The position numbers and the translations under genes were made by a program. The notes under the pieces are model-generated. The model was not told the DNA's origin and made no database searches. It was given only the letters and a program-made list of their open reading frames with translations. DNA of 64,000 nt, taken from contig CAZKAT010000003.1 in NCBI GenBank assembly GCA_964551135.1, forward strand, positions 90,942-154,941, given 5' to 3'. Each line of letters starts with the position of its first letter. The stretch's first letter is position 1. This stretch comes from an uncultured Gammaproteobacteria bacterium (GTDB lineage Bacteria; Cyanobacteriota; Vampirovibrionia; LMEP-6097). Shown here piece after piece: positions 10,773 through 55,152 of this stretch.

Positions 10773-10774
10773 AG

Positions 10775-15453: not shown

Positions 15454-15456
15454 GCT

Positions 15457-16320: not shown

Positions 16321-16352
16321 GAATATAGAATTATTCAGGCACTCATTCACCC
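16296..16352. repeat. GC-rich imperfect hairpin element overlapping the murQ 3' end (terminator-like)
   Basis: GCCTGAGTGACCGAGGGGTGAGTGACTGAG ... loop ... CAGGCACTCATTCACCCAGACACCCAGTCACC. GC-rich arms in an AT-rich background. Shares a CCTGAG core with the other palindromic elements. Confidence 0.5.
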
Positions 16353-16403
16353 AGACACCCAGTCACCTCTTTAATTTTTACCGACTGCTATACTTATAAA
16401 GTT

Positions 16404-35869: not shown

Positions 35870-36520
35870 TCAAATACTTGATATCACCAACGACATATCA
35901 ATCTTGGCTGGAATAGTTCTCCTTATTTTAAATAAGTTATCAATGACTATATGAATATTATGCTCATTAATTGAATTTCGCTTTAATATTTCCTCTAACC
36001 AAACACTTGCCTTATACAAATTTTCAATTGTATTCATATCTTTAGAATGTTGCCTTGGATTAAAGTCCTCTTGTGCTAAAGTATGTGCCCACATTCCTAT
36101 GTACTGTTCTTTTATTTTTATATGTTCGTACATAGGTAGAATCAAAACAGAATATCTAGAAGTTTTTAACTTATCTATTAAAGCATTTACTACTGTTGAA
36201 CTATCTTTCATTAATTCCTTATATAAAGATGGTCCTTTTCTTGGATCGAATTCTCCATCAATAAATAAACTATCTGGCATTGTTCCAGCTTGAAGCTGTT
36301 CTCTTTCTTCATGTGTAAATTCAATAGCCTCGACTTTTGGAATTTCCGGAACAGCAAGTTGCTCCAGTTCCTCTCTAGGGACTACTTTAACCGGAATAGT
36401 ATCCTGACCTACAGTTCTATTTTTAGCTGTTTTCCACCAACTGCCGAAAAAAGACCTTCTGGCCGGAGCTCCTGCTCCTTGCGTAGAATCTGAATGTGAT
36501 CTAAGTAATCGTGCATCCAT
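35870..36520 (-). CDS. hypothetical protein
   Basis: 216-aa ORF with no recognisable motif. Confidence 0.4.
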   Translation of the reverse strand: MDARLLRSHSDSTQGAGAPARRSFFGSWWKTAKNRTVGQDTIPVKVVPREELEQLAVPEIPKVEAIEFTHEEREQLQAGTMPDSLFIDGEFDPRKGPSLYKELMKDSSTVVNALIDKLKTSRYSVLILPMYEHIKIKEQYIGMWAHTLAQEDFNPRQHSKDMNTIENLYKASVWLEEILKRNSINEHNIHIVIDNLFKIRRTIPAKIDMSLVISSI

Positions 36521-36624
36521 AGAAGTTTATCTTACCATAGTAAAGTTTTAATCATCGAAATCATAATAGGTATAACGATTTAATTACTATAGCAAGTAAG
36601 CGGCAGCATATAATGTTCTAAGTC

Positions 36625-37755
36625 ATGGATTTTTTATTTATCATTATCAGCATTTTAACTATCACTCTACTTATAGTAGTTCACGAGTTTGGGCATTTTC
36701 TTGCAGCAAAATATTTTGGCTTTCAGACACCAGTGTTTGGTATTGGCTTACCCTTCGGTCCTTCTATAGATCTATTCAAGAAGTGGGATACCCAGTTTAA
36801 ATTTTATTGGGCATTGATTGGAGGCTTCGTTGCTATACCTGAGTTAGGAGATGAGACAGATCCCGAAACAATTAAAAAATACAGCATGGATAAACCTTTA
36901 AGAGAGTTTCCTGTTTATCAGCGCGCCATAGTAGCCAGTGGTGGCATAGTATTCAATATACTGTTTGCATTCTTGCTTGCAGTAGTGATGGCAGGTTCGG
37001 TTGGTTTACCTAGAGCAGCGGCTAATAATATTATCAGTGGATTTGTTGCATCTAATACTACCGCTAAAGATGCTGGATTAGAGCCTGGTGACAGGGTTAT
37101 AGCCGTTAATAATACTCCTATCCAAGACGGCAAGGAATTACAAAAAACAATTCATGATCTAGGTGAAAGTGATTTGAATCTAGTAATAGAAAGACCTACT
37201 AAGGTAGGAGATACTGAATCAGTGCAAACTAAAACAATTCACTTACACTCGAAAGGTTCCCTTGGAATAATTCTTGGACATCAGAAAGAATACAAGAAAT
37301 TCGCTCCTAATCCTTTAATCTGGATCTGGGAAGCATTTAAATTTACTGCTGATACTACTATAGCTATGATACTTTCAGTGATTGGATTACTGGCAGCTTT
37401 GGTTCATAAAATACTTGCCTTAGTTATACCGAACCTTGCACCCATGGCAACAGAATTAGGTGAAGTGAAAGGTATAGTCGGAATAGTGCAAATTATTAGT
37501 CACGATATTAAATCCAATGCCGTACTCTTACTTGAGTTTGCTATTCTACTGAGTCTAAACCTTGCAGTAATTAATATATTACCTATACCTGCACTAGACG
37601 GTGGGCATCTATTATTCATGGCTTATGAAGCGATCACTGGCAAAAAACCTCATGGCAAATTGCAAGAAGGTGCTATTCAAATAGGGTTTATATTTCTACT
37701 GAGTATCATTGCTATTACAACATTTAACGATATCAAGAATTGGATTTTTGGATAA
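36625..37755 (+). CDS. rseP: RIP metalloprotease RseP (site-2 protease)
   Basis: HEFGHFLAAKYFG zinc motif in TM1, PDZ domain and C-terminal LDGGHLLF motif. Confidence 0.9.
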   Translation: MDFLFIIISILTITLLIVVHEFGHFLAAKYFGFQTPVFGIGLPFGPSIDLFKKWDTQFKFYWALIGGFVAIPELGDETDPETIKKYSMDKPLREFPVYQRAIVASGGIVFNILFAFLLAVVMAGSVGLPRAAANNIISGFVASNTTAKDAGLEPGDRVIAVNNTPIQDGKELQKTIHDLGESDLNLVIERPTKVGDTESVQTKTIHLHSKGSLGIILGHQKEYKKFAPNPLIWIWEAFKFTADTTIAMILSVIGLLAALVHKILALVIPNLAPMATELGEVKGIVGIVQIISHDIKSNAVLLLEFAILLSLNLAVINILPIPALDGGHLLFMAYEAITGKKPHGKLQEGAIQIGFIFLLSIIAITTFNDIKNWIFG

Positions 37756-37761
37756 TCAATT

Positions 37762-38736
37762 ATGGAAGCACACAAACCATCATTAATAGAAAGTATAGTA
37801 GTTTTTATAATTACCATACTAGTCTTAGCTCTAATATTAGAATTCGTTCTAGTATTCAAGAATAAGGACGGACGTAATTATGATATCGAGATGTGGAAAT
37901 ATTCTCGCGAGCTTAAGCGCGTCTCAAGCAATCCAAAACTCGGTCATGAACACATTCCTAATAAATCAGCTAAATTACAAAACGTTGATATTAGAATCAA
38001 CTCTCTTGGCATGCGCGGTGATGAGCCTAAAGTAGCTGATACCAAGATACTAATGCTCGGTAGTTCTATTACTTTCGGCTGGGGTGTACCAGAAGAGAAA
38101 ATCTATCCAGAACTTTTAGAAACTAAGTTTAAAGATAGCGGGAAGTCCGTAGAAGTTTACAATGCTGGCATTGGTAATTACAACAGCACCAGAGAAATAG
38201 AACTTTTCTTCTCTAAGCTAGAACAAATTAAACCAAATATCATCATCTTAAATTCTTTCATTAGAGATGCAGAGGTTATACCTAGCCCTAAACGCAATTG
38301 GCTACTAGAGAATTCTCAACTTGCAGTAACTATATGGTCAAGACTTGAGCAGCTTAAACGTAAATTTGGAGTAGAGACAAGCTTTGAACAACATTATAAG
38401 GATATCTATGCAGATGACTATCCTGGTTGGATAGAAATGCAGAAGGCTTTCGCCAGACTCGCAGAATATGCCCAAGCTAATCACGTCAGAGTAATTGTGA
38501 CAATGATTCCTGATATCCATAATCTTAAAGACTATCCTTTTGTTTTTATCCATGAGAAAGTAGCTAGGCTTGCTCAAGCTAATGGCTTCGAGTTTGTAGA
38601 CTTCTTTGATTCATTCAAGGACATCGCTGATCAAAGCAGTCTCTGGGCTATGCCAGGTGACCCGCATCCTAATGAGACGGGACATAAGTTAATGGTGAAT
38701 CAGTTGTATAATTACCTTGCTGCGTTTCCGCAATAG
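37762..38736 (+). CDS. membrane-anchored SGNH/GDSL hydrolase (polysaccharide O-acetyl transfer/esterase type)
   Basis: N-terminal TM. SGNH blocks LMLGSSITFGWG (Ser), NAGIGNY (Gly), and GDPHPNETGH (Asp/His). Confidence 0.65.
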   Translation: MEAHKPSLIESIVVFIITILVLALILEFVLVFKNKDGRNYDIEMWKYSRELKRVSSNPKLGHEHIPNKSAKLQNVDIRINSLGMRGDEPKVADTKILMLGSSITFGWGVPEEKIYPELLETKFKDSGKSVEVYNAGIGNYNSTREIELFFSKLEQIKPNIIILNSFIRDAEVIPSPKRNWLLENSQLAVTIWSRLEQLKRKFGVETSFEQHYKDIYADDYPGWIEMQKAFARLAEYAQANHVRVIVTMIPDIHNLKDYPFVFIHEKVARLAQANGFEFVDFFDSFKDIADQSSLWAMPGDPHPNETGHKLMVNQLYNYLAAFPQ

Positions 38737-38744
38737 AAAATAAG

Positions 38745-40157
38745 ATGCTATTTAATTCATCAAGCTTTTTTGTATTTTTCCTCTGCTTACTTGCAGTGAC
38801 TAGTCTTAGTCCACTCAGATGGATTAAGATCATACTTTTAATTGCCAGTCTTATTTTCTATTCTTTCTGGTATCCACCTTATTTGATAATGCTTCTAGTA
38901 ACAGTAAGCATTAACTATCTATTTTTGAAGCGCATATATGTTTTAAGAACTGCTCCAGGAGACGATCCTCAAGCCAAGAGATTACTTACTATATCTTTGG
39001 TTTTTAATTTACTCTTGCTGTTTGGTTTTAAATACTTACATTTCGTTGCTGGAGCTTTTGGTTATAGCTTACCTGCTGATTTCAAGTGGGCATTACCTCT
39101 TGGCATTTCTTTCTACACCTTCGAAGCTATAGCCTGTCTAGTAGACACTTATAAACGCCAGAATCCGTTCCCTCCTAAGTTTCAGGACTTCTTATTCTTT
39201 GTAAGTTTTTTCCCGCATCTTATTGCTGGTCCTATTCTAAGAATTAAAACCGATTGGGCACATGTGATGCACCCAATTAAACCTAATTTCAAATCAATCA
39301 ATTCTGGATTGTACCTATTTACCTGGGGCTTAGCTAAGAAATTACTTATCGCAGATAATTTAGCGATTTTTGTGGATAGTTCTTTTAATAATATTGCTAG
39401 CTTAAGTTCCCTAAACGCTTGGATCGGAATTTATGCTTTCGCTGTACAAATATATTGTGATTTCTCCGGTTACGTAGATATGGCACTCGGACTTGCCATT
39501 ATGTTTGGTATTGAGCTTCCTGATAACTTTAATGGTCCTTATCTATCTCAGTCTATAACTGAGTTCTGGCGTAGATGGCATATCACCTTATCAAGCTGGC
39601 TGAAAGACTATCTCTATATTCCTCTTGGTGGTAATCGCAAGGGCGAAATTAGAACTTTTATTAACCTAATGCTCACGATGCTACTGGGTGGTTTATGGCA
39701 CGGAGCTAATTGGACTTTTGTAATTTGGGGTGGCTTGCATGGACTATATCTTAGTGTTGAGAAACTTCTGCATGAGCATTTCAGCTTGCCACTTATCGAA
39801 GATAAAAGTAAATTCTCTCTGAGAATATTTATTCAACAAATAATTTGTTTTCATTTAGTTTGCTTAGCTTGGGTCTTCTTCAGAGCACATAGCTTAAACG
39901 AGGCTAGTAATTATATTTCAAAACTAATTAGCTTAGACACTCTTAATTCTATAAATGCTGACCCTCTACTAGAACAAAGCCTTGCTATTCTATTTATAGC
40001 TTTATGCTTACATCTCTTAAATAGAAAATTCAATATCAAAAACAGCATCAGCAACTGGCGCATAGAATTTAAATTAGCTTTCCTATTACTTGCTTCGGTT
40101 CTTATATTAGTAATGGGAGTAAAGCAGGAAGTACGGTTTATTTATTTTGATTTTTAA
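38745..40157 (+). CDS. MBOAT family O-acyltransferase (AlgI/DltB/PatA-like)
   Basis: Multi-TM protein with MBOAT signature WRRWHITLSSWLKDYLYIPLGGNRKG ... LWHGANWTFVIWGGLHG. Confidence 0.85.
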   Translation: MLFNSSSFFVFFLCLLAVTSLSPLRWIKIILLIASLIFYSFWYPPYLIMLLVTVSINYLFLKRIYVLRTAPGDDPQAKRLLTISLVFNLLLLFGFKYLHFVAGAFGYSLPADFKWALPLGISFYTFEAIACLVDTYKRQNPFPPKFQDFLFFVSFFPHLIAGPILRIKTDWAHVMHPIKPNFKSINSGLYLFTWGLAKKLLIADNLAIFVDSSFNNIASLSSLNAWIGIYAFAVQIYCDFSGYVDMALGLAIMFGIELPDNFNGPYLSQSITEFWRRWHITLSSWLKDYLYIPLGGNRKGEIRTFINLMLTMLLGGLWHGANWTFVIWGGLHGLYLSVEKLLHEHFSLPLIEDKSKFSLRIFIQQIICFHLVCLAWVFFRAHSLNEASNYISKLISLDTLNSINADPLLEQSLAILFIALCLHLLNRKFNIKNSISNWRIEFKLAFLLLASVLILVMGVKQEVRFIYFDF

Positions 40158-40170
40158 ATTTATCTCAGTA

Positions 40171-40989
40171 TTAAATATTATCTCGCTGAGGCGTGTATGT
40201 CTCAAGAACCTCTTTGAGTTGTTGTTTCAGCTCTATATGTAAACTTAAATTACGTGATAAGTCGCTAGTTAAGCTACCATGATTCAGACCCAAATGTTTC
40301 CCAGAAGCCATAAAGGCACCCTCCCCATAATCAGAACGCGATTGAGCAATAAATCTTAAAACATCTAATACTATTGGATCGAGCTGTGCTTGATTTGCCA
40401 TTTTCTTAAGATCATCATGTAATTCATAACCAGGCTGAGCCGCTTCTGCAGACTGTTCAATAAATCTAAGCATCTGCTGAACTGTTTGTTTTTGAAGCTC
40501 TAAAAGCTTAGCAGGATCTTGAGCAAGTGCTTTAAGTGCAGCACGAGATGCATCATCAACTTTAACTTCTGGTATATCTACTACTTGAATACGAAAGTTT
40601 CCCCCCAAACCATCAGCCTTAAATCTTTGAATATGGAATTCAGAACTTTCTACGCCATAGTCTAGTGTTGCAGTTTTACCAGGAGCAAATTTTAAAGAAA
40701 CAACTGGATTTGCAATAAGTCGATTGTTGTAATAAGCTGCAAATTTAGTGCCTTTAGGAAATGCGTTCAGCCATGTATTCACTGAAGCTAAAAGTCCTGT
40801 TTCTATTGCAGAACGTGAAATCGCAAATATTTGACCAGATTGAACCTTAGCAGCGGGATTTTGACTAAGCTCTTTAGAATTCCGAATTGGAATATCAGAT
40901 GAAATCGGAGCTATAGAAGCTGGAATATTATTACCATTTGTTGAATTATTGGAAGAAGTACCATAAATATGTTGGCGAAGAGTAGTCAT
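40171..40989 (-). CDS. hypothetical protein
   Basis: 272-aa ORF with no signal peptide and no recognisable motif. Divergent from the small membrane protein gene. Confidence 0.4.
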   Translation of the reverse strand: MTTLRQHIYGTSSNNSTNGNNIPASIAPISSDIPIRNSKELSQNPAAKVQSGQIFAISRSAIETGLLASVNTWLNAFPKGTKFAAYYNNRLIANPVVSLKFAPGKTATLDYGVESSEFHIQRFKADGLGGNFRIQVVDIPEVKVDDASRAALKALAQDPAKLLELQKQTVQQMLRFIEQSAEAAQPGYELHDDLKKMANQAQLDPIVLDVLRFIAQSRSDYGEGAFMASGKHLGLNHGSLTSDLSRNLSLHIELKQQLKEVLETYTPQRDNI

Positions 40990-41077
40990 TATCTTGCTGA
41001 TTTTACCATGTGTAATTATTTTTATTCAAGGATATTGCTTATTTTTGAATAGATATAGATCAACTATAATAAAAGCC

Positions 41078-41287
41078 ATGCTAAAAGCTATCACTAATAC
41101 TTGTTCTAAATTATATAAAGGTCTAATTGCTGGCCTGAAAACTCTCTATGAATTATTTATCTATATCTCTAAATCTAAATTCTGGTGGCTAGCACCAATG
41201 ATACTGGCTTTAGTACTATGTGGAATCTTCTTAGTAGTAGTCAATACCGTTACAACTACTATGCCATTTGTTTACGCACTATTTTAA
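41078..41287 (+). CDS. small membrane protein of the type found beside carbamoyltransferases (DUF5989/SxtK-like)
   Basis: SKFWWLAPMILALVLCGIFLVVVNTVTTTMPFVYALF. The start is chosen at the internal Met (MLKAITN); the ORF track starts at 40994. Confidence 0.5.
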   Translation: MLKAITNTCSKLYKGLIAGLKTLYELFIYISKSKFWWLAPMILALVLCGIFLVVVNTVTTTMPFVYALF

Positions 41288-41304
41288 TTTGCTATATTTA
41301 GGTC

Positions 41305-42273
41305 ATGAACGATCTTAAGAAGAACCTAGGCGTATTTCTATTAACAGTTTTATTAATTGTAATAGGCGCTGAATTATATTATCGCTTCGTCAATCCCAAA
41401 GTACTAGGTAACACTGGTTCATTGTCTTATACTAAATGGTCACTAAACAATGTCAAACTCAATAGCTGGGGTTTTAGAGATAAAGAAAGAACTATCAAAA
41501 AAGAAAACCCTGCTATCAAAAGAGTCTTAGTAATTGGACCTTCTAATATATATGGTCAAGGCGTTACTAATCTTGAAGAGAGACTAACCGAAAGACTAGA
41601 GAGAAAACTTAACGCAAGCAATTCTGGTCAGTACGAAGTAATTAATTTTGGAACTATGACTCTAGATCCTGTTGGTACCTCTGTAGTACTTCTGAACAAT
41701 ACTATTCAAGCTGGTTTAGAGTTTGACTATGTCGTAGTTTACTATGCTTGGAATGCTATTAAACATATACCTGAAATTGGTCAAGCTTATATGAAATATA
41801 AAATGAGCCATTATAATGAGGCTAAACCCAATCCACTAGATCAAGCTCTATCTAAAAGTTCATATTTATATGACTGGGTTAAAAATGTGTCTAAGGATAA
41901 AACTTTCTTGATCGATGGTAAGACTTATACTGAGTGGCATTTAGACTACTATAATAATGATGACTATTTCAGAAAACATATAGAAGCTCTTAAATCAATC
42001 AATGATATGGTCAGCAAACACAATGCCAAACTTTATTTATTAATAGTGCCAATTAGTTACAATGAAAAAGAACGCGAAAAATATGCTCCAATACGCAATA
42101 AACTACTAAGCGCACTTCAAGAAGCTAATATTAGCTATGCTGATGCAACGCAGATCTATAATGGCATTCCTGAAATGGAAATTCCTGTAAGTAAGTATGA
42201 TGGACACAATAAATCTAAATACTACGAAAACATGGTTGACATTCTAGTTCCGCTTATCGAAAAGCAGCCCTAG
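41305..42273 (+). CDS. membrane-anchored SGNH-like hydrolase paralog
   Basis: N-terminal TM. VLVIGPSNIYGQG (Ser block), VINFGTMT (Gly block), and YDGHNKSKYYEN (Asp/His block). Confidence 0.55.
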   Translation: MNDLKKNLGVFLLTVLLIVIGAELYYRFVNPKVLGNTGSLSYTKWSLNNVKLNSWGFRDKERTIKKENPAIKRVLVIGPSNIYGQGVTNLEERLTERLERKLNASNSGQYEVINFGTMTLDPVGTSVVLLNNTIQAGLEFDYVVVYYAWNAIKHIPEIGQAYMKYKMSHYNEAKPNPLDQALSKSSYLYDWVKNVSKDKTFLIDGKTYTEWHLDYYNNDDYFRKHIEALKSINDMVSKHNAKLYLLIVPISYNEKEREKYAPIRNKLLSALQEANISYADATQIYNGIPEMEIPVSKYDGHNKSKYYENMVDILVPLIEKQP

Positions 42274-43837
42274 TAGCCATCTCTTCTGCAGCAGTACTAA
42301 ACTCTAAATCACTAATATCAATTAATCTAATACCCGCTTCTGGATTCAAGATCTCAGTTTGAGCAGCTTTCAGAGCGGGAACATTAGCTACATAAGGATT
42401 ATAATCAGGAATATTACGCAGACCAAAAAATAAGATACGAGTTTTAACGAAATTCTGCTTTAATTCTTTGATAAAAGCTGCTAAGAACTTTTGATAGTTA
42501 TATGGATCATCCAAATCACTATCTCCTGAATAAATCATTAATCCCTGGAATTTTAAACCTAATAATGGTTCTATTCTCTCATAATAAATCAAACCAGGCG
42601 TAGTCAGATCAGGAGTCTTACGATAGGACCATTTATAACCTGGCTTAAGCACTGTCTCTGACTTAGTTCCAGAAGATAAATTAATGCGAAGATTCAGTTG
42701 CTCACGAGCAAGCTTCACCACATCATCAACATCAGTTATCAATAATTCTATTTTATTATATTTAGGCTTAAGCAAGGATGCTGCTACATTGAAAACCCGT
42801 AAGGTTTCGGCTTCATCAATACTACCTATCAATTCTTCATTAATGAATAAGCTAATATCACCTTCAGTAATCTTATCGACAGCAAGTTGAATAAGGGTAG
42901 AACCATTCAAGTTTAAATTAGTATTGAATAGAGATTTATAATGATGTTCTACTGGAATATCAGTTGCTGCAAGCTCATCATGTGTTTCATCATCAGCGTC
43001 AAGGTTCTCCGCTGCGACCTCTTGCTTACCATGTTTCTCTTCATGAGTCACAATTGCTTCAACAGAACTTTTTATGTCGTCAGGAACGTTAGTAACAACT
43101 AACGAATCTTGAAATTCTGGGAATTGAACCAGTGTCTCTGGACTAAGCAAAGTTTTAATTGGGATATAATTCTCAGAGACATTAATTATGCCGACAGGCA
43201 CATGATAACGTTTACTAAAAAGCTTAGCTAAGTAATAAGGAACCGCTGGTATATCAGTAACATTTTGTGGTGCAACAATCTGCCAAAGTGCTTCCTGATT
43301 AAGTTCTTTAAATCCAGTTGTTTCAGATGAAAGATCAGCATCATAATATCTAATATTGTTTAGACTAGTAGCAGCTTTAATTTCCTTAGTAAAATCTTTA
43401 GTCTTACTCAGAGGAAAATTAATTATAGATTCACCAAGTACTAACCATTGATCTCCTATAAGAACATTCTCTAAAATAATCTCTTCTTTATCTGATTTAA
43501 TTTTAATTTCATAAGGGCCGCCAGCATCATGCTCACCTATATTAATTTTCCAATTATCATTTTCATCAGATTTGCCAGTGTAAGATTTATCTTTAAATTT
43601 TATTTTTATTTCTTTATCATGATGAGCCTTACCCCAAATTGTGATGGTTTGATTTCTTTGTAGCAGCATATTGTCAGTAAAAACTTTAGCCAGGCTAAGA
43701 TTAGGCGGATAATAGTCCACCTTCAGCTTATTAAGATGGATTAAGGAGTATCTCATAATGGCTACAAAAGCAAGTATCACTATTAATAGTGAAAGATATA
43801 ATTTTATAGTCTTATCTTTATTCTTGTCCTGAGCCAC
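42254..43837 (-). CDS. sialate-O-acetylesterase-like (SASA/DUF303-type) carbohydrate esterase, membrane-anchored
   Basis: N-terminal TM. SASA N-terminus KVFTDNMLLQRNQTITIWGKA...GGPYEIKIKS...ILENVLIGDQWLVLGESI, parallel to the SIAE GQSNM serine block. Confidence 0.5.
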   Translation of the reverse strand: MAQDKNKDKTIKLYLSLLIVILAFVAIMRYSLIHLNKLKVDYYPPNLSLAKVFTDNMLLQRNQTITIWGKAHHDKEIKIKFKDKSYTGKSDENDNWKINIGEHDAGGPYEIKIKSDKEEIILENVLIGDQWLVLGESIINFPLSKTKDFTKEIKAATSLNNIRYYDADLSSETTGFKELNQEALWQIVAPQNVTDIPAVPYYLAKLFSKRYHVPVGIINVSENYIPIKTLLSPETLVQFPEFQDSLVVTNVPDDIKSSVEAIVTHEEKHGKQEVAAENLDADDETHDELAATDIPVEHHYKSLFNTNLNLNGSTLIQLAVDKITEGDISLFINEELIGSIDEAETLRVFNVAASLLKPKYNKIELLITDVDDVVKLAREQLNLRINLSSGTKSETVLKPGYKWSYRKTPDLTTPGLIYYERIEPLLGLKFQGLMIYSGDSDLDDPYNYQKFLAAFIKELKQNFVKTRILFFGLRNIPDYNPYVANVPALKAAQTEILNPEAGIRLIDISDLEFSTAAEEMATRAAFR

Positions 43838-43869
43838 CTAAACGCATTATACTGGTATTTCGAGGAAAA

Positions 43870-44070
43870 ATGGCGTTATTAAAAAAAATCTGGAAACTAT
43901 GGAAGGCATTTGCCGATAAAGTATTAAGAACAGCTTTTCAGATTATTCTATTGATTTTTTATTTCACTATTTTAGTCCCCTTTGCAATTATATTTAATAT
44001 TGCAGATAAGGAAACATTTTTATCGGGCTGGAAACCTGTAAGCGAATCACAGGCTAAGGACATGTACTAA
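43870..44070 (+). CDS. small membrane protein immediately upstream of the carbamoyltransferase (SxtJ/K-like partner)
   Basis: 66 aa with one TM (AFQIILLIFYFTILVPFAIIF). Its stop overlaps the start of the carbamoyltransferase gene. Confidence 0.45.
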   Translation: MALLKKIWKLWKAFADKVLRTAFQIILLIFYFTILVPFAIIFNIADKETFLSGWKPVSESQAKDMY

Positions 44071-45824
44071 TGACAGTGAAAATTATTGGAATTTCTGCTT
44101 TTTATCACGATGCTGCAGCAGCGCTAATAATTGACGGTAAGATTATCGCCTGCGCGCAAGAAGAAAGATTTAGTCGTATTAAAAATGATTCTGAATTTCC
44201 TAAACATGCCTTAGAGTTCTGTCTAGAACAAGGATCCAAAGAACTAGGTCAAAAACTAAGTATTAACGACATAGACTATTTAGTATTTTACGAGAAACCT
44301 ATACTGAAATTCGAACGCATTCTTCTTAGCTGCCTAAAGTATTTCCCTAAAACATTTTGGTTCTTCGTTAAATCCATGATCACTTGGTTCTCAGATAAAT
44401 TATGGATGAAAGGTAAACTAGCAGAGCTTTCTGGCATAGCCCCAGAAAAAATTGTCTTCTCTCAACATCACTTATCCCATGCTTGTAGTTCTTATTTCTG
44501 TTCTGACTATAATGAAGCAGCGATACTGACTATTGATGGAGTAGGTGAGTGGGCTACTACAACTATCGGTCACGCTCAGGGAAATAAAATTAAACTCTTA
44601 GAAGAAATTAGATTTCCTAACTCTATAGGTTTACTATACTCGACATTGACTGCGTTTCTTGGCTTTGAAGTGAATGAAGGTGAATATAAAGTTATGGGCA
44701 TGGCTTCATATGGTAAGCCCAAGTATGTTGAGCAAATTAAGCAAATGTTTCAGTTAAATGATGATGCTAGCTTCTACAACGTAGAAAAATTCTATGCATA
44801 TTTATATGATCCAGCTAAGAGCTACACTGCAGAGCTAGAGAAACTTTTAGGTAAGCCTCGTGAGCGTGGTGATAGGTTCTTCGTTGATCCTGAAAGCAAG
44901 GAACGCGACCAACACTATGCAGATATAGCTAAGAGCTTACAAGTTATTACTGAAGATGCTGTACTAGCCCTAGCTCGTAGAGCTAAGCAGCTTACTGGCT
45001 CTAAAAATTTATGTTTCTCTGGCGGAGTAGCACTTAATTGTGTAGCGAACGCTAGAATACTTAGAGAATTAAATTATGAGGATGTCTTTGTGCAACCTGC
45101 AGCTGGTGACTCAGGTAGCGCTCTAGGAGCTGCTTACTACGCTTATAATATTCTTCTGAATAACCCTAAGGTAGATTCTGGATTCACACATCCTTATTGG
45201 GGTACCGAAATCACTGATGCTGAAGTAGAACAAGAGATTAAAGCTCGTGGACTCACTAAAGTAACTAGATTTAATAGTTTTGAAGAATTACTAACAAGGC
45301 TTGCAGAAATACTGAATTCAGAAAAAGTAATTGGTTGGTGCCAGGGTAGATTTGAATGGGGACCTAGATCACTTGGTGCTCGCAGTATTATTGCTTCTGC
45401 AGCTAAAGCAGAGATGAGAGATACTGTTAACCTCAAGATTAAATTTAGAGAAGCTTTTAGACCCTTTGCTCCAGCAGTAATAGAAGAAGCCGCTGATCAA
45501 TACTTTGATCTAAAGCATCCAACTAAGACTTCTATGTATAAGTATATGCTTGCTATTTGCCCGGTGAAACAAGGGAAGCTGCTAGAAGCTATCACTCACG
45601 TTGATGGCTCTGGAAGAGCACAAACCGTCAACAGAGAGACTAATGCTAAGTTCTATGATCTACTTAAAGCTTATGAGAAGCTTTCTGGCATACCAGTGCT
45701 TATTAATACTTCTTATAATCTCCGTGGTGAACCAATAGTAACAACAGCTTCAGATGCTTTGAATACTTTTTATAAGAGTGGATTAGATGCACTAGCTATA
45801 AATAATTATTTGATAGAGAAATGA
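44070..45824 (+). CDS. NodU/CmcH-family carbamoyltransferase
   Basis: N-terminal MTVKIIGISAFYHDAAAALIIDGKIIACAQEERFSRIKND typical of the YrdC/Kae1-like carbamoyltransferase family. 584 aa. Confidence 0.9.
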   Translation: MTVKIIGISAFYHDAAAALIIDGKIIACAQEERFSRIKNDSEFPKHALEFCLEQGSKELGQKLSINDIDYLVFYEKPILKFERILLSCLKYFPKTFWFFVKSMITWFSDKLWMKGKLAELSGIAPEKIVFSQHHLSHACSSYFCSDYNEAAILTIDGVGEWATTTIGHAQGNKIKLLEEIRFPNSIGLLYSTLTAFLGFEVNEGEYKVMGMASYGKPKYVEQIKQMFQLNDDASFYNVEKFYAYLYDPAKSYTAELEKLLGKPRERGDRFFVDPESKERDQHYADIAKSLQVITEDAVLALARRAKQLTGSKNLCFSGGVALNCVANARILRELNYEDVFVQPAAGDSGSALGAAYYAYNILLNNPKVDSGFTHPYWGTEITDAEVEQEIKARGLTKVTRFNSFEELLTRLAEILNSEKVIGWCQGRFEWGPRSLGARSIIASAAKAEMRDTVNLKIKFREAFRPFAPAVIEEAADQYFDLKHPTKTSMYKYMLAICPVKQGKLLEAITHVDGSGRAQTVNRETNAKFYDLLKAYEKLSGIPVLINTSYNLRGEPIVTTASDALNTFYKSGLDALAINNYLIEK

Positions 45825-46496
45825 TTAAACTGCAATTAACTTATATCCAGACTGACTATAAGTATGAGTCTCATTACCAATTTTATCCGTAACTAAAAGT
45901 TCAGTGATAGGCACTTCTTCATCCTGGTAAACCTCTCTCCTATTTACGGCATCAAAGTGTCCATCAGGAAATCCATTCATATGAAAGTCTAACAATCGTT
46001 GACTCGAAGCTTCATAAGCTTCAAGATTCAATAACTTAACCTTCTTAGAATCTAATTTACCATCTTGTCTAATAACATAATCTAGTAAGAATTTTAATTC
46101 TGGATGATCAATTCCAAAAATATCTTCGGCTTGAGGAAAATAGAGTTGAACTCTTGCATGACTATCATCAAGTCTTTCTATATCGATTTGTCCCTCCATA
46201 AATCCTCCTCCTCTAGAGAAAGAAACTGTTCCAGAACGTAATTCACCTTGTCCATTATCAGTAGCAACTCTCATAGTAGCTATATTATCTATTTGTCTAT
46301 TTATGTTTCCTGCAATTTCTTCCACAGGCAACTTAGCTAGAAATCCCTGTTCTAGTGTATGTAGATTAAACTCATCTCTTATCCGCTCAGAAGGCTTAGT
46401 ATCATCTTGCTTAGATTTAGTTAATACACCACGAGTCAAGTCTTCAATATTAATCTTAAAAGGAATGTTTATTGCAAGTCTTGATGTCTTCAACAT
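45825..46496 (-). CDS. hypothetical protein
   Basis: 223-aa ORF with no recognisable motif. Confidence 0.4.
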   Translation of the reverse strand: MLKTSRLAINIPFKINIEDLTRGVLTKSKQDDTKPSERIRDEFNLHTLEQGFLAKLPVEEIAGNINRQIDNIATMRVATDNGQGELRSGTVSFSRGGGFMEGQIDIERLDDSHARVQLYFPQAEDIFGIDHPELKFLLDYVIRQDGKLDSKKVKLLNLEAYEASSQRLLDFHMNGFPDGHFDAVNRREVYQDEEVPITELLVTDKIGNETHTYSQSGYKLIAV

Positions 46497-46567
46497 AAGT
46501 GCAAGAATAGCACAAATATAAAAGCAAAATCAACTGCTATTTAGTAATACGCTATAATACTCGCATT

Positions 46568-47674
46568 GTGACGACGACTATGAATCAATTTTCCGAAACA
46601 GAAGTTAATAATCCCGAAGAGATTATAAGTAGCATTGATAGAGCTACTAAGAATGGTTTTGTGGCACATGATTTGAACAATAAAGTTATACGCTTTAGTA
46701 GCAAAATGCAGGAAGTTACTGGCTGGACTGAAGCAGAAGTTATGGGGAAGGACGTAAAAGAACTATATCAAGTACAAGATGCTTGTAATATTCAAGATCC
46801 CGATGCTGTTACTGAGCATGTGGTGACTTTATTTACTAAGGATGGTAAACAAATCAAATTAGCTGTAAGACAGACAGGCATTCTTGGTAAAGAAGGGGAA
46901 GCTGTCGGATGTTTAATGTTTTTTGTTATCGAAAACTATAATAAAAACTTAGATAGAGCTCAATCAGAATTCATTAGTACTGTATCGCATGAATTAAGAA
47001 CTCCAATCACTAGTATCAAAGGGTTTGCTTCTACTTTACTTAGTACCAAAAAAGAACTAGAAAAAGAGAAACGCGATAAATATATTCGTATTATTCAAAA
47101 CCAAGCTGATAGACTTTCTCGCTTAGTTGAAGATTTACTTGCAGTATCAAGACTAGAAAGTAAAAAATTACAATTAACTATTCATCCAGTAAAACTTTTA
47201 CCAATAGTAGACTATGTCGCTGAAGTTGTTGGTTCTAAGCATAAGTTCTCCCATGAAGTGAAGATGGATTGTCCTAAAGATTTACCAGAAGTTTGGGTAG
47301 ATAAGGATAGACTAGAACAGATCTTAACTAATCTAATTGATAATGCTTTTAAATATTCACCTGAATCTAAGATTATAGACATCAGCATCAGAGTCGATAA
47401 ACTCAACTATCAAGACATGGTTAGAATAGATATAACTGACTATGGGATTGGGATTGAAGCTGAAAACCAACAAAAAATCTTCACTAAGTTTAGTAGACTC
47501 GATAATCCTCTTACTAGAGTTACTGAAGGTACTGGACTAGGATTGTATATTAGTCGTTCTCTTACTAAGATACAAGGTGGTGAATTAAAGCTTAGTAGCA
47601 CCAAGGGTAAAACTACATTCTCTGTATATCTTCCATTAACAGCTCATAAGGGTGGTGAAATATGGTGGGATTAA
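46568..47674 (+). CDS. cytoplasmic PAS-domain sensor histidine kinase
   Basis: PAS-like N-terminus. H-box HELRTPITSIKGF. HATPase N and G boxes (LIDNAFKYS, GTGLGLYI). No TM. Confidence 0.85.
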   Translation: MTTTMNQFSETEVNNPEEIISSIDRATKNGFVAHDLNNKVIRFSSKMQEVTGWTEAEVMGKDVKELYQVQDACNIQDPDAVTEHVVTLFTKDGKQIKLAVRQTGILGKEGEAVGCLMFFVIENYNKNLDRAQSEFISTVSHELRTPITSIKGFASTLLSTKKELEKEKRDKYIRIIQNQADRLSRLVEDLLAVSRLESKKLQLTIHPVKLLPIVDYVAEVVGSKHKFSHEVKMDCPKDLPEVWVDKDRLEQILTNLIDNAFKYSPESKIIDISIRVDKLNYQDMVRIDITDYGIGIEAENQQKIFTKFSRLDNPLTRVTEGTGLGLYISRSLTKIQGGELKLSSTKGKTTFSVYLPLTAHKGGEIWWD

Positions 47675-51047: not shown

Positions 51048-51278
51048 ATGCCTGACTATATCTATATTTTCATAAATTCTTACTTGCCAATCTTAGTAGC
51101 TTTAGTTCTAGGTTTATTTATAGGCAGAATCACAAAAACCAAGAGTAAATCCTCAGTGCTGACCGGTTCTAGCGATGAACAGAAACTCAATAATGAAGTA
51201 CTTAAAGATCAAGTAAAACAGCTTGAATCTAAAATTAAAACACTAGAGAAAGCTTTAGAGATTACCAGTAAAAATTAA
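51048..51278 (+). CDS. small TM plus coiled-coil protein
   Basis: 76 aa. One TM (LPILVALVLGLFIG), then a heptad-like helical tail. Confidence 0.3.
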   Translation: MPDYIYIFINSYLPILVALVLGLFIGRITKTKSKSSVLTGSSDEQKLNNEVLKDQVKQLESKIKTLEKALEITSKN

Positions 51279-52093
51279 AGTCCAGCCCTTGGATGGAAGT
51301 CCTTATATGCCTTCGCAAGTCTATAATCTTGTTCTTTAACAAATGGTCTATAAAAATTACTTAGCTTAATAGCAAGCTTCTCTTCGATTTGCTCCAAGCT
51401 TAAACCTTGGTCTAAAAGATTCATAATCCTACTGCGTTTAAGGTAACTATGTTTCAATTCATAATTTTGCAAAATCTTAGGAATATCTGTTTCTATAAAT
51501 AATGGATCTTTCATAGTCATAGATTGAGTTTCTGGAAGCATTTTTGGTCTGTATTCTTTTAAATATTCTTTCATTTGCTTAGCTAGACTATCAGAAATCT
51601 CCAATCTAGTAGCTCGATAATTAAAACTATTACTCGCTAAATTATAATTTTCCAGATTCAAAGCAGTTAGTTCATCTTGTGAAAGATACAATTCATAAAT
51701 TACCTGAACTATTAACTGTTCATAATTAAATTCTGTTCCAAATCTATCAAAAATTTCGTTCTCTTTATAATAACTAAAAGCATCATGATTAAAGGAGAAC
51801 TTAAGCTTCCAAAAAGGGTTATTGTCCAAGTTCAACCAATTAATAAATTGACGTAAACTACTTAACTTAGAAACAAAACTTGATTCCATATATTTTTCTT
51901 CTAATTCATTTATATATCGAGTAATAAATTTAGCTTGAACACTGGCATCATCATTGTCTTTAAGATAGTCTATAAAAGCTTTAATATCTCTATTAATATT
52001 AGCTATAGTACCTGCTGACTTATTAGTACTCTCTTCCAAATACTGAATAAAATACTTTAGTAATTCTTCATTGAGAACGTAATTATTGTGCAT
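51275..52093 (-). CDS. tyrosine-recombinase-like protein (XerD-like N-terminal SAM-like domain; catalytic residues apparently degenerate)
   Basis: N-terminus LKYFIQYLEESTNKSAGTIANINRDIKAFIDYLKDN resembles the Xer/integrase core-binding domain. The region expected to carry the first catalytic Arg reads LSQDELTALNL, and the C-terminal HxxR/Y boxes are poorly conserved. Confidence 0.4.
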   Translation of the reverse strand: MHNNYVLNEELLKYFIQYLEESTNKSAGTIANINRDIKAFIDYLKDNDDASVQAKFITRYINELEEKYMESSFVSKLSSLRQFINWLNLDNNPFWKLKFSFNHDAFSYYKENEIFDRFGTEFNYEQLIVQVIYELYLSQDELTALNLENYNLASNSFNYRATRLEISDSLAKQMKEYLKEYRPKMLPETQSMTMKDPLFIETDIPKILQNYELKHSYLKRSRIMNLLDQGLSLEQIEEKLAIKLSNFYRPFVKEQDYRLAKAYKDFHPRAGL

Positions 52094-52306: not shown

Positions 52307-52918
52307 TTACTTAGCTAGTTCAGCACCATTAGTGATCTGCAGCTTCTGCTTAATTTCTTCAAGAGTCATTTCTTTTATAGACTTCTCTTCAATAGATTCT
52401 ATTTCTTCCTTAACCTTATCCTCACGTGTTTGCGTTTCTTCAATTTCAGGAGCTTCCCATATTGATTCATCAGTAAACTGCACTCTCATGATTTCAACAT
52501 AGTAATAAGCATCATCTCTAAAAAACTTATCTTTTTTAAAGTGTATGGATTGCTCTTTACCAACCGGAAGGACATCAATACTATTCACCTCAGTTCTTTG
52601 ATCAACCCAGTTCTGGAACGGGAGCTTCAGAGTCCAAGCAACTCTATAAGCCATAATATCCTTATCACCAATATTCTTAACCTTCACACTGAAGTCATTA
52701 AAAATACCGGTGAGTGTCTTAGTTTTCTCAGAACCTTTATCAGCAACTTTAGCCTCCAATATCTCTACTGGTGCATCTGGATGATTAATAATTTTTACTG
52801 TTTGAATATGTTTCTTTTTAAATGGAATAAGAAACTTCTCAAACTCCAGAAAACTTTTAGCCGGTTGAGCTAAAGACAAGAAACAAACAACTATAACTAA
52901 TGGTATAAATTTTCTCAT
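52307..52918 (-). CDS. hypothetical secreted protein encoded immediately downstream of the secretin
   Basis: Signal peptide MRKFIPLVIVVCFLSLAQPAKS. Its start overlaps the secretin stop. Acidic helical C-terminus. Confidence 0.45.
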   Translation of the reverse strand: MRKFIPLVIVVCFLSLAQPAKSFLEFEKFLIPFKKKHIQTVKIINHPDAPVEILEAKVADKGSEKTKTLTGIFNDFSVKVKNIGDKDIMAYRVAWTLKLPFQNWVDQRTEVNSIDVLPVGKEQSIHFKKDKFFRDDAYYYVEIMRVQFTDESIWEAPEIEETQTREDKVKEEIESIEEKSIKEMTLEEIKQKLQITNGAELAK

Positions 52919-55152
52919 TAATATGTTGCTCCAGCTGCTTGTAAATAGACCTCTTCAACTTCATCTCCTGTTCTAATATTAGGAGTGATAAGTATTAAAA
53001 GTTCTCTTAAGTTTTTATTTCTTGAATTATTACCAAATAAGCTTCCAATAATAGGTATCTTACTCAATACTGGAATTTCATTATTTCTCGTGTAACCTTT
53101 TCTATCATCAAACAATCCACCAATAGCAATAGTTTCATGATTAACAATTTGAATCTCAGAAGATATTCTTCTTCTAACGGTTTGCTGAGGTACACCAGTA
53201 GTTGGATCTATAGTACCGTTAACCGATACTTCAACTTCAACCTTAACAGTTACTACTCCACCACCACCTACTATAGGAGTGATATCCATTGAGTTACCAG
53301 CCGTTACTCTGTTAATAGATTGCTGTTGAGCTGCAATAGAACCAGTTCCAATAGCACCAGCTTTATTTAAAACTACGTTTATATCTTGGTCAAAATTAAT
53401 CTTCGCACTCTTACCACTAGTTACCAAAAGTCTCTGATTAACTTTGATTTGTGCATTGTTATTAGTTTGGGAGAAAGTAGGATTATTAGCAAAAATCCCC
53501 ATGTATTTTGATCCTAAATTTACATTAAAGCCAGTTGATGGTGCCGTAGTCCCAGATCCAGCAGCAGTAACATTACCAATCTTACCTATAGTGAATGGAG
53601 TCTGATAGAGATTGTGTGATTGCGTGAAGTCTTTAGATATTTCTACTAATTTCACAACAAGTTCTACTTGTGGGATCGGCTTGTCAATAGTTCTAATAAA
53701 ATCATAGAGCTGAGTTAACTGTTGCTTAGAACCATCTGCAATAAAGGCGTTCTGATTAGAGCTAACTTGTACTAAGTTTTTTAATTCCGCTGGTAACAGC
53801 TTATTAGCTTCTTGTGCTTCCAAGTATTTAAGAGGGAAGAGTACAGTTCTACTATCAAGTGAGAAGTTCTTATTAGTAGAACTGTAAACAACATAGGTCT
53901 CTCCCTTCTTAGTGTAATTAAATTGGCTGCCTGCAAACAATAATTCAAAAGCATCATCTATATTTACTCCTCTAACTTTCAGAGTAATTCTATCAGTAGG
54001 ATTAGCAGTCATTACCACATCCACACCATAAGTATTAGCAAGGTCTTTAATGATACTTGATAAATCTTCGTTATCATAAGTTAAGTCTGCATATCGCTCT
54101 TCCAGCGGTAATGTTAAATCTATATCAGAAGTATCAAAACCCGCAATAAGACTAGTTCCTTTACCACCTTGTTTTTTAAGTATTGTGTAATTATCACCAC
54201 TTCTACGGAAATCTACATCAGCAGCATCAACTAAACTTAAAAATGCTTTAGTAAAGGGTTGATTATTGATTTCAACAACAGAGATAGTATCTCTATCTTG
54301 AACAGATCCGCTGACAGTTATACTTTTACCTGATACTCTTGCCAAAGTTGCAAAAGCATCTCTTGTAGCTATATTTCTTGCAGAGAAATTAACTATAGGA
54401 TCCTCACTAGGAGCTTGTTTTAGAGTAGCTTCCTTTTTAATCGTTCTCTCTCTTTTAGGAATTCCAACTATTTCTATTAACTTCTCAATCTCTTTAAGAT
54501 CTTTAGGATTCTCTGGATTTAAACCTGCAAGTAAATCACCATATTGTGAATATAATCTAGCAAAATCTTCTGGTGTTCTATCAAAAGTGTTAGCTAATTT
54601 GACATAATTTGTTCTTTTCTGTGCTTCTGTCTTCTCTAAATCACGTTGAGCTTTAGCTTTTAAATCAGCATCTATTTTTGCTGCATCCTCTGCTGACTTA
54701 GCTGCTAATGTAGTTTGAGTCGCAGTTGGTATAGTAGTAGTTGTTGTTGTTGTCTTAGCTGGCGTTGTTGTCTTAGCTGGCGTTGTTGTCGTAGTTGTTG
54801 TAGTTTTAGCTGGGCTTGATGTTGTTGTTGGCTTAGCAGGACTTACGGTTACAACAGGTGCGGTCGTTTTAACTGGAGTTGTTACTTGTTTCTTAACAAC
54901 TGGAGTATCTTCCTCTTCTTCATCGTCACCATAGAATCCATTGTCTTCATCATCCCAATCATCATCACTCCAATCGTCATCATCATCAGATGGTTTAGCT
55001 GCAATAAATGGAGTCTTCGCTAATGAAACTGCTGCTATTAATTCTTGTTCTTGAATCTTATAGGGAGTAGGGGTAAAAGAATTAGTTAGCGCAGGCCTAG
55101 CCATGCCAGATAATATTATTAATGCTATGGTGAGTGTTTTGATTCTGCGCAT
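52918..55152 (-). CDS. secretin (GspD/PilQ family) with acidic and Thr/Pro-rich N-terminal extension
   Basis: C-terminal secretin motif IPVLSKIPIIGSLFGNNSRNKNLRELLILITPNI. N0-like domain. Signal peptide. DDDDDWSDDDWDDEDNGFYGDDEEEED and a T/P/A-rich linker (AKTTTTTTTTPAKTTTPAKTTTTTTT). Confidence 0.85.
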   Translation of the reverse strand: MRRIKTLTIALIILSGMARPALTNSFTPTPYKIQEQELIAAVSLAKTPFIAAKPSDDDDDWSDDDWDDEDNGFYGDDEEEEDTPVVKKQVTTPVKTTAPVVTVSPAKPTTTSSPAKTTTTTTTTPAKTTTPAKTTTTTTTIPTATQTTLAAKSAEDAAKIDADLKAKAQRDLEKTEAQKRTNYVKLANTFDRTPEDFARLYSQYGDLLAGLNPENPKDLKEIEKLIEIVGIPKRERTIKKEATLKQAPSEDPIVNFSARNIATRDAFATLARVSGKSITVSGSVQDRDTISVVEINNQPFTKAFLSLVDAADVDFRRSGDNYTILKKQGGKGTSLIAGFDTSDIDLTLPLEERYADLTYDNEDLSSIIKDLANTYGVDVVMTANPTDRITLKVRGVNIDDAFELLFAGSQFNYTKKGETYVVYSSTNKNFSLDSRTVLFPLKYLEAQEANKLLPAELKNLVQVSSNQNAFIADGSKQQLTQLYDFIRTIDKPIPQVELVVKLVEISKDFTQSHNLYQTPFTIGKIGNVTAAGSGTTAPSTGFNVNLGSKYMGIFANNPTFSQTNNNAQIKVNQRLLVTSGKSAKINFDQDINVVLNKAGAIGTGSIAAQQQSINRVTAGNSMDITPIVGGGGVVTVKVEVEVSVNGTIDPTTGVPQQTVRRRISSEIQIVNHETIAIGGLFDDRKGYTRNNEIPVLSKIPIIGSLFGNNSRNKNLRELLILITPNIRTGDEVEEVYLQAAGATY

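Follow-up and report, generated by a model that had tools for sequence, protein, structure and literature searches.

A probable envelope-glycan decoration locus that combines an MBOAT-SGNH pair with a carbamoyltransferase module, and an acyl-shuttle motif on the microprotein DUF5989

The window analyzed here, a stretch of 64,000 nucleotides from the genome of an uncultured bacterium (contig CAZKAT010000003.1), contains a cluster of eight genes in which two modules can be recognized. One consists of an MBOAT acyltransferase and a transmembrane (TM)-anchored SGNH protein (SGNH1), and the other of a NodU/CmcH-family carbamoyltransferase (CmcH), two small membrane proteins, and a putative second SGNH-fold protein (SGNH2). 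Both the MBOAT and one of the small proteins, a member of the Pfam family DUF5989, end with an FXYXXF acyl-shuttle hexapeptide, a feature that was overlooked in the initial annotation of the cluster. This motif on DUF5989 and the recurrent operon joining both modules are the parts of the locus that merit follow-up. The locus probably functions in the decoration of an envelope glycan during or after export, with one lane for O-acylation and another for O-carbamoylation; a relay of the carbamoyl group across the membrane is proposed tentatively. The eight genes over approximately 8 kb that had been annotated were all confirmed by ORF calling at 37762-45824, six of them on the plus strand and two (unk272 and the SASA-like gene) on the minus strand. 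The open reading frames (ORFs) and the two terminal motifs, which were read from the sequence, are as follows:

37762-38736, plus strand, SGNH1, 324 amino acids (aa)
38745-40157, plus strand, MBOAT, 470 aa
40137-40154, plus strand, FIYFDF, the final six codons of MBOAT
40171-40989, minus strand, unk272, 272 aa
41078-41287 (40994-41287 in the ORF list), plus strand, DUF5989 microprotein, 69 aa
41267-41284, plus strand, FVYALF, the final six codons of DUF5989
41305-42273, plus strand, SGNH2, 322 aa
42254-43837, minus strand, SASA-like protein, 527 aa
43870-44070, plus strand, putative short SxtJ, 66 aa
44070-45824, plus strand, carbamoyltransferase (CmcH), 584 aa

The microprotein was assigned to DUF5989 (PF19451) with an E-value of 1.6e-10 and a score of 41.3 bits (cutoff 27), and its translation probably starts at the ATG at 41078 (69 aa) rather than at the TTG at 40994. 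It is built of a basic N-terminus, a single TM helix, and an uncharged tail, with FVYALF at the very C-terminus. In the family consensus, a K/R cluster is followed by one TM helix and by a short tail, uncharged and rich in Ser and Gly, which leads to a terminal PF(I/V)Y(T/A)LF-COOH, and an F.Y..F ending was present in 62 of 69 DUF5989 ORFs. As the K/R cluster precedes the TM helix and the tail is uncharged, the C-terminus is predicted to face the outside. The Tyr of the FXYXXF hexapeptide is the acyl carrier in MBOAT-SGNH systems, with the motif being fused to the acyltransferase in PatA (FIYANF) and located on DltX in the Dlt system (PMC12148441); for the DltX motif, FLYFGF, an extracellular location is predicted (PMC11035591). 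According to a 2025 paper on PatA/PatB, MBOAT/SGNH pathways apart from Dlt have no DltX-like microprotein (PMC12148441). A literature search retrieved nothing on "DUF5989" and no relevant paper joining an acyl shuttle or the DltX motif to carbamoyltransferases, and the FXYXXF shuttle tag on DUF5989 is a newly noticed link. The acyl-Tyr shuttle logic of MBOAT-SGNH and AT3-SGNH acylation was itself established only in 2023-2025. DUF5989 is thus a Pfam family without assigned function that is marked by the shuttle motif and, across many phyla, accompanies carbamoyltransferases as well as SGNH proteins with a TM anchor.

The surroundings of the carbamoyltransferase were compared in 80 metagenome loci (CmcH 40-50% identical), which were found by carbamoyltransferase alignment and scanned with custom hidden Markov models (HMMs); a subset of 30 loci, referred to as well-flanked, had at least 2.5 kb of flanking sequence on each side. 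A gene for SxtJ or DUF5989 occurred within 2.5 kb of CmcH in 72 of the 80 loci and genes for both in 58, whereas for DUF5989 taken singly the count was 62. At least one of the two small partners was present in all 30 well-flanked loci, and nearly all of the partner genes were located on the same strand as CmcH. An SGNH gene was found within 3 kb in 31/80 loci, and in 29 cases the distance to a gene of the trio (CmcH, SxtJ, or DUF5989) was at most 400 bp. The idea that the SGNH gene always directly follows DUF5989 was dropped, since the nearest trio gene was CmcH in 16 cases, DUF5989 in seven, and SxtJ in six. On planctomycete plasmids annotated by the Prokaryotic Genome Annotation Pipeline (PGAP), carbamoyltransferase, SxtJ, and DUF5989 are encoded inside an exopolysaccharide (EPS) locus with exosortase, EpsI, and tyrosine kinase, and pSymB of S. 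meliloti carries together the genes for a carbamoyltransferase, a DUF5989 of 49 aa, a further protein of 143 aa, and an SGNH protein of 442 aa.

The acylation pair and the carbamoyl module also occur jointly elsewhere. DUF5989 and a carbamoyltransferase are encoded within 10 kb in four of seven informative genomic contexts of SGNH1 homologs (Bradyrhizobium sp. CB82, L097, L101, and L102), and both modules lie within 10 kb in CB82, in L010 (Anaerolineales), and in L050. They are divergent neighbors in locus L097 and form a single same-strand run in the order SxtJ-DUF5989-CmcH-SGNH1-MBOAT in L101 and L102. The carbamoyltransferase gene of L010 (9995-11766) is broken into two ORFs. Genes adjacent to the homologous loci encode GT4, GT2, and Glycos_transf_4 proteins, DegT, Wzx, Wzt, UDP-glucose dehydrogenase, and epimerases. 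Such glycosyltransferase, Wzx/Wzt, and sugar-nucleotide neighbors support a glycan as target, and with the loci containing exosortase/EpsI they agree with the surface-glycan decoration system that had been suggested from the window. Two recurrent modules thus share one locus in several phyla, often within O-antigen or EPS loci, and in several lineages DUF5989 shares an operon with a PatA-type MBOAT-SGNH pair inside these loci. The synteny comparison, which the initial annotation had named as a check, revealed the same combination of genes in relatives as well as in distant phyla, and chance clustering is excluded on this basis. In the close relatives L004 and L009, the genes RseP-SGNH1-(MBOAT)-DUF5989-SGNH2-SxtJ-CmcH are a contiguous one-strand run, the parentheses marking the MBOAT gene that is missing from L004. 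In the window this conserved run is split by the two minus-strand genes into at least three transcription units, and the eight genes cannot constitute one operon.

The acyltransferase matched PF03062 (4.7e-35), and SGNH1 matched the Pfam family Lipase_GDSL_2 (1.9e-14) and has an N-terminal TM helix as anchor. The SGNH1 gene begins 5' of the MBOAT gene with 8 bp between them, and the proposed MBOAT-SGNH pairing is supported by the adjacency of an MBOAT gene to the SGNH1 homolog in all seven informative sampled contexts. An MBOAT gene also adjoins the Anaerolineales SGNH1 ortholog (44% identity). The SGNH1 family includes more than 1100 members with approximately 45-90% identity, and G100, S102, N134, and D300-P-H302 are invariant in the alignment. 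DltB structures matched the MBOAT at 6e-22, with His319 (in GGLWHGANW) aligned to the catalytic His336 of DltB, but the score of 157 bits for the DltB equivalog TIGR04091 is below the cutoff of 375. The MBOAT protein terminates with RFIYFDF, and nine of ten homologous MBOATs likewise have an FXYXXF ending; the sole homolog without it, a 545-aa protein in L097 (11034-12671), may be affected by a frameshift or a fusion. Based on this ending, the pair fits the PatA/PatB paradigm (AlgI/AlgJ/AlgX, WssH/WssI, PatA1/PatB1), and MBOAT and SGNH1 can be regarded as a putative O-acylation pair of this type with the shuttle motif fused to the MBOAT. Shared features are an MBOAT of approximately 470 aa with an invariant His and a C-terminal FXYXXF (FIYFDF here, FIYANF in PatA of N. 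gonorrhoeae) and a neighboring SGNH protein of approximately 320 aa whose N-terminus bears a TM helix and whose Ser/His/Asp triad is intact. In contrast to the known systems, SGNH1 is not detectably orthologous to PatB, AlgJ, AlgX, or DltD, the locus contains no active Ape-type esterase, and the pair is repeatedly associated with a carbamoyltransferase module, a linkage without a described precedent among PatA/PatB-type systems. When the SGNH1 family profile was compared to the PDB, only generic GDSL esterases were retrieved; PatB (7TJB, 8TLB) was absent at E<=1, and neither DltD nor AlgX was found.

The NodU/CmcH assignment was upheld, like that of the MBOAT, by Pfam profiles (PF02543, 1e-71; PF16861, 8e-64). 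CmcH matched the structures of NovN, GdmN, and TobZ over the full length (6e-84 to 4e-77) and consists of a Kae1-like N-domain and a YrdC-like C-domain; the residues H133, H134, H137, D156, and D347, which are of the metal-binding type, are invariant in the alignment. No TM segment is present, and the enzyme is read as cytoplasmic. The same two-domain organization with conserved metal-binding His and Asp residues is found in TobZ, NovN, GdmN, NodU, and WapO, the last of which (PA5005; Pseudomonas lipopolysaccharide [LPS] core) is a precedent for the O-carbamoylation of an envelope glycan, yielding 7-O-carbamoyl-heptose. Unlike these enzymes, which act alone on soluble or cytoplasmic substrates, the CmcH subfamily described here is nearly always accompanied by SxtJ and DUF5989. 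It also differs from NovN by an extra aromatic segment (residues ~88-112; window 44331-44405), which is a conserved amphipathic stretch, FPKTFWFFVKSMITWFSDKLWMK, in the subfamily associated with SxtJ/DUF5989. This region corresponds to a gap or poor alignment in the comparison with NovN, and the best stretch aligned with TobZ begins at residue 128. The segment could possibly be a docking site for the membrane or for a partner protein.

The 66-aa protein encoded directly upstream of CmcH contains an amphipathic basic helix and one hydrophobic helix and had no Pfam match. A weak BLASTP alignment (E 3e-6) connected it to the C-terminal half of an "SxtJ family membrane protein" of Planctomyces, and its Rokubacteria ortholog (L006) reached an E-value of 0.0093 for PF19588, which is below the cutoff. 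The score with the custom SxtJ HMM was 8.6e-29, although the training set of this model contained the 66-aa sequence itself. The location directly upstream of CmcH is kept in L002, L004, L005, L006, and L009, and the protein is tentatively read as a short form of SxtJ. Its stop codon and the start codon of CmcH overlap (TAATG), and the two genes are predicted to be translationally coupled. The small partners of SxtJ/SxtK type that had been suggested earlier are thus well represented by DUF5989, which was identified by profile, and more weakly by the 66-aa protein, whose resemblance is to the C-terminal half of SxtJ. Among 67 SxtJ-family ORFs (L012-L094), 54 have an aromatic last residue; most commonly the sequence closes with (K/R)Q(F/Y)-COOH, and a Tyr is frequently found five residues from the C-terminus. 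The short SxtJ of the window ends with KDMY. According to charge counts, the orientation of the tail may differ between long and short forms.

SGNH2 had no Pfam match and a weak NCBIfam match (1.3e-4), and its family profile retrieved nothing from the PDB sequences. The fold was revealed by predicted structure alone, as the AF2 model (pLDDT 81.5) matched SGNH hydrolases including PatB, Cj0610c, and TesA, which supports SGNH2 as a protein of the SGNH fold. The family is TM-anchored and clade-restricted, comprising only 39 homologs that are each at least 50% identical, and the residues G78-P-S80-N81, N114, G116, N150, and D299-G-H301 are invariant. Of the two SGNH paralogs that had been annotated, SGNH1 is supported by Pfam and SGNH2 indirectly by its predicted fold, but "paralogs" is a generous term for a remote likeness of 25% identity over 137 aa (E 0.015). 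The SGNH2 gene is located 17 bp downstream of DUF5989, at the position of sxtL, and it goes with the carbamoyltransferase module and not with the MBOAT, an association that the initial annotation did not recognize. In the sxt cluster, the neighboring genes are sxtI (612 aa), sxtJ (134 aa), sxtK (54 aa), and sxtL (GDSL, 426 aa), with sxtJ and sxtK being functionally uncharacterised partners of sxtI in published clusters (PMC2679770; PMC2684587). The same four gene types are present in the window, namely a NodU/CmcH enzyme, a putative SxtJ-family membrane protein, a microprotein of ~50 aa, and a GDSL/SGNH protein. Judging by size, position, and PGAP naming, SxtK would be a DUF5989 protein, and SGNH2 may be considered equivalent to SxtL by position. 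The arrangement differs from sxt in the 66-aa short form of SxtJ, in the size of SGNH2 (322 aa vs. ~426 aa for SxtL), and in its context, which consists of envelope and glycan genes without toxin genes.

The catalytic residues are retained in the MBOAT, in both SGNH proteins, and in CmcH. In the O-acylation lane, the MBOAT would use His319 to move an acyl group, probably acetyl from acyl-CoA, onto the Tyr of FIYFDF at the outer face of the membrane, by analogy to PatA, from which the TM-anchored SGNH1 (Ser102/His302) would take it and transfer it to a sugar hydroxyl of the glycan. In the O-carbamoylation lane, cytoplasmic CmcH would convert carbamoyl phosphate and ATP to carbamoyl-AMP, as TobZ does, and would work with the two small membrane proteins, short SxtJ and DUF5989. 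Tyr66 of DUF5989 would then carry the carbamoyl group as a Tyr-O-carbamate to SGNH2, and SGNH2 (Ser80/His301) would place it on a glycan hydroxyl. This Tyr-carbamate relay to SGNH2 is plausible but unproven. More generally, CmcH, SxtJ, DUF5989, and a TM-anchored SGNH protein might form a trans-membrane O-carbamoylation relay with DUF5989 as a DltX-like carbamoyl-Tyr shuttle, which we advance as a tentative and rather doubtful proposal.

Several observations weigh against the two-lane system with its relay. An SGNH gene is near just 31/80 trio loci (14/30 in the well-flanked subset), MBOAT genes are found in none of the 30 well-flanked CmcH loci (1/80 overall), and L004 retains SGNH1 without the MBOAT. 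Conversely, L098 encodes DUF5989 together with MBOATs and SGNH proteins and has no CmcH within 10 kb, so that DUF5989 possibly serves MBOATs instead of CmcH. The loading step is a weak point, since CmcH is soluble and ATP-dependent, yet the Tyr of DUF5989 is predicted by the positive-inside rule to be outside. A channel-forming partner is not evident, and the short SxtJ has just one hydrophobic helix. Charge counts at the TM flanks were ambiguous for SGNH1, SGNH2, and the SASA-like protein, whose outward orientation is assumed. DUF5989 also has no sequence-level match to DltX: Pfam scans retrieved DUF5989 only, its profile had nothing but chance TM-helix matches in the PDB (DsbB, A2A receptor) and no DltX chain, and the likeness consists of motif and architecture. 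To our knowledge, no member of the DUF5989, SxtJ, or SGNH2 families has been biochemically characterised. Finally, no glycan-synthesis locus flanks the cluster in the window, with a GT9 gene as sole exception, and the polymer (LPS core/O-antigen, EPS, or peptidoglycan) can thus not be read from the window.

A possible alternative, about as tentative as the relay, is direct carbamoylation by CmcH of a substrate in the cytoplasm or the inner leaflet, which could be a small molecule, a nucleotide sugar, or a glycan linked to undecaprenyl, with SxtJ and DUF5989 as tethers, SGNH2 as a hydrolase (esterase or decarbamoylase), and the MBOAT-SGNH1 pair as an independent system. The characterized relatives of CmcH (TobZ, NovN, GdmN, and NodU) all carbamoylate soluble substrates directly. 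WapO/PA5005, for which small partners are not known, is considered to carbamoylate the heptose of the LPS core (PMC8005017), SxtL has been proposed to be a decarbamoylase (PMC2679770), and both the missing transmembrane conduit and the presence of SGNH genes near just 31/80 trio loci are in line with this reading. What this explanation leaves unaccounted for is the terminal FXYXXF of DUF5989 (62/69), which is the acyl-Tyr motif of DltX and PatA, as well as the 29 TM-anchored SGNH proteins with intact Ser/His that are encoded at most 400 bp from a trio gene. The gene content could also be reconciled with a single Dlt-like pathway without an acyl lane, in which CmcH takes the role of DltA, the MBOAT passes the carbamoyl group across the membrane to the Tyr of DUF5989 as DltX equivalent, and SGNH1 and/or SGNH2 act as DltD. 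The parts indeed parallel DltA/DltB/DltX/DltD: DUF5989 is a single-pass microprotein with a terminal FXYXXF (FVYALF/FIYTLF; FLYFGF in DltX), the gene next to it encodes an SGNH-type protein with a TM anchor, an MBOAT gene is a further neighbor in several genomes, and the donor would be activated upstream by an adenylate-forming cytoplasmic enzyme. The tight same-strand run in L101 and L102 and the order SGNH1-MBOAT-DUF5989-SGNH in the window and in L098 are also in accordance with this pathway. We nevertheless consider it improbable, because the MBOAT has its own fused FIYFDF, as does PatA, which uses acetyl-CoA; the CmcH/SxtJ/DUF5989 loci are mostly without an MBOAT (1/80 have one; 0/30 of the well-flanked); L004 lacks the MBOAT with everything else kept; and no carrier protein was found among the scanned ORFs. 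Further differences from Dlt are the MBOAT score below the DltB cutoff and the activating enzyme, which is a carbamoyltransferase here. No DltA/DltC-type adenylation enzyme or carrier protein was detected by the family scans, which covered the cluster and the scanned neighboring ORFs, with ~13 ORFs elsewhere in the window lying outside the scans. Melainabacteria are generally regarded as diderm. The host, whose window contains GT9 and secretin genes, is probably diderm as well and would thus have no teichoic acids, the polymers that the Dlt pathway D-alanylates.

Peptidoglycan O-acetylation (OAP-type), with the MBOAT as PatA, SGNH1 as PatB, the SASA-like protein as an Ape-like esterase, and the carbamoyl genes as unrelated neighbors, would be in keeping with the PatA-like size, catalytic His, and C-terminal motif of the MBOAT, with the PatB-like architecture of SGNH1, and with the occurrence of cell-wall genes (mreB, mreC, and a MurQ-like SIS gene) in a window that has no dedicated polysaccharide locus. 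It appears unlikely given that the SGNH1 profile did not retrieve PatB from the PDB at E<=1, that the SASA-like protein has no catalytic His, and that SGNH1-MBOAT homologs are located in O-antigen/EPS loci and repeatedly joined to the CmcH trio. A cassette for the tailoring of a secondary metabolite resembling saxitoxin, an antibiotic, or a Nod factor is highly improbable, even though a toxin cluster is known to contain the sxtI/J/K/L module and the nearest solved relatives of CmcH are antibiotic tailoring enzymes. Genes for polyketide synthases, nonribosomal peptide synthetases, amidinotransferases, or other pathway enzymes were not found among the scanned ORFs of the 64 kb; the flanks consist of housekeeping genes with conserved synteny, and homologous loci are glycan loci. 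CmcH also scored only 165.8 bits with the NodU equivalog NF041651 (cutoff 1000). The membership of the carbamoyltransferase in a known antibiotic or nodulation pathway, which the initial annotation had listed as contradicting evidence, was therefore not observed, no genes of either pathway being present in the flanks.

If the proposed DUF5989 relay exists, the acyl-Tyr relays known from MBOAT-SGNH and AT3-SGNH systems would be joined by a third kind, one for which an MBOAT is not needed. Such a relay would assign roles to SxtJ, SxtK, and SxtL, whose functions have lacked an explanation ever since the sxt cluster was described, and would explain carbamoyl groups on exported polysaccharides. When LPS, capsules, EPS, or peptidoglycan carry O-acetyl and O-carbamoyl groups, their recognition by phages, lysozyme, complement, and antibodies is altered. 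Culturable carriers exist in Bradyrhizobium sp. CB82 (CP121650, around 8.27-8.29 Mb) and with the pSymB locus of S. meliloti (CP073680, around 483-487 kb). Even if the relay is wrong, this remains a well-supported, though ordinary, cluster for glycan decoration in an uncultured Melainabacteria lineage. In the aforementioned L098, the genes SGNH1-MBOAT-DUF5989-SGNH (438 aa) and a second MBOAT gene occupy 10001-16650 and encode three shuttle motifs (FIYYDF, FIYALF, and FLYFQF).

The SASA-like protein had no Pfam match but was connected by phmmer to PF03629 proteins (5.5e-29), and Foldseek aligned its predicted structure (pLDDT 77) with the CE20 esterases 9ega, 9h4u, and 7kmm and with mammalian SIAE (7.8e-35 to 7.6e-18, the best match being 9ega). 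With CE20 enzymes (XAC1771, PpCE20_II, FI8) and SIAE it shares the N-terminal beta-sandwich with F(S/T)DxMVLQR, the split SGNH-like domain, and the inserted jelly-roll. The annotation as a sialate-O-acetylesterase-like protein thus holds for the fold, but the catalytic residues are not intact. The motif GQSNM is changed to GESIIN (GESI(I/V)N across the Melainabacteria subfamily) and GESN to GDSD (GDSD or GDSN across the subfamily), which replaces the Asn residues in blocks I and III, and a deletion of five residues in the subfamily removes the catalytic His, which the CE20 structures contain in the motif "IHP". The protein also lacks the C-terminal domain and has a TM anchor. These changes, the Ser to Ala exchange in the subfamily member P0006, and the absence of the gene from the relatives L004 and L009 do not support the removal of acyl groups that had been attributed to this protein. 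It probably is a non-catalytic accessory with an esterase fold and, because the catalytic His is lost, glycan binding is a more likely role for it than esterase activity. A Pfam-recognised SASA protein (PF03629, 349 aa) is encoded in L100 (5752-6801, minus strand), 3 kb from an SGNH1/MBOAT pair. SASA-family esterases may be common accessories of such loci, with the window copy being a degenerate version.

The second minus-strand gene, unk272, had been counted as a member of the cluster. It had no Pfam or NCBIfam match, is absent from the closest relatives L002, L004, and L009, and has besides itself one remote homolog (30% identity) among 1.84 billion representatives; it is a strain-specific ORFan insertion outside the system. 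The minus-strand ORFs at 35870-36520 and 45825-46496 are likewise strain-specific, without family matches, and absent at these sites in L002, L004, and L009. Together with unk272 (40171-40989), these three ORFs without family matches span 216-272 aa and are interspersed among conserved genes of the plus strand. No significant relatedness was found when unk216, unk272, unk223, unk181, unk228, and a 311-aa ORF of L002 were compared. This last ORF (3320-4255, minus strand) is part of a different insertion between RseP and SGNH1 in L002, a 95%-identical relative, and contains "HYHLILET"; by eye it looks like a tyrosine transposase of the IS200/RAYT type.

The RseP gene (36625-37755) ends 6 bp upstream of SGNH1, in agreement with its annotation just upstream of the cluster, and scored 216.6 bits for TIGR00054 (cutoff 147.55). 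A gene of the GT9 heptosyltransferase family and der are located farther upstream, the G + C content is even over the region, and mreB, mreC, and the MurQ-like SIS protein are encoded within the window. Scans of 36400-46700 yielded 33 promoter-like sites (36.7 expected from shuffled sequence) and eight terminator-like sites (5.3 expected) and were uninformative on co-expression, and a tRNA-His at 49009 was the sole find of the tRNA and Rfam scans. The nearest relatives are metagenome-assembled genomes labelled Cyanobacteriota/Candidatus Caenarcanales (Melainabacteria), and some (L002, L003, L008, L009) are labelled "uncultured Gammaproteobacteria"; as genomes with the same synteny carry the cyanobacteriotal label, the gammaproteobacterial one looks wrong. 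A PMT/ArnT-like GT-C glycosyltransferase of 611 aa (PF02366, 2e-17), a periplasm-facing type that modifies glycans or lipids, is encoded 17 kb upstream of the cluster (18679-20514, minus strand). Other genes of the window encode a Fic/DOC protein (8421-9488), a HipA-type kinase toxin (14218-15453), an ORF with only a phage-integrase SAM-like N-domain (51275-52093), and a secretin with STN and FecR_C domains (52918-55152).

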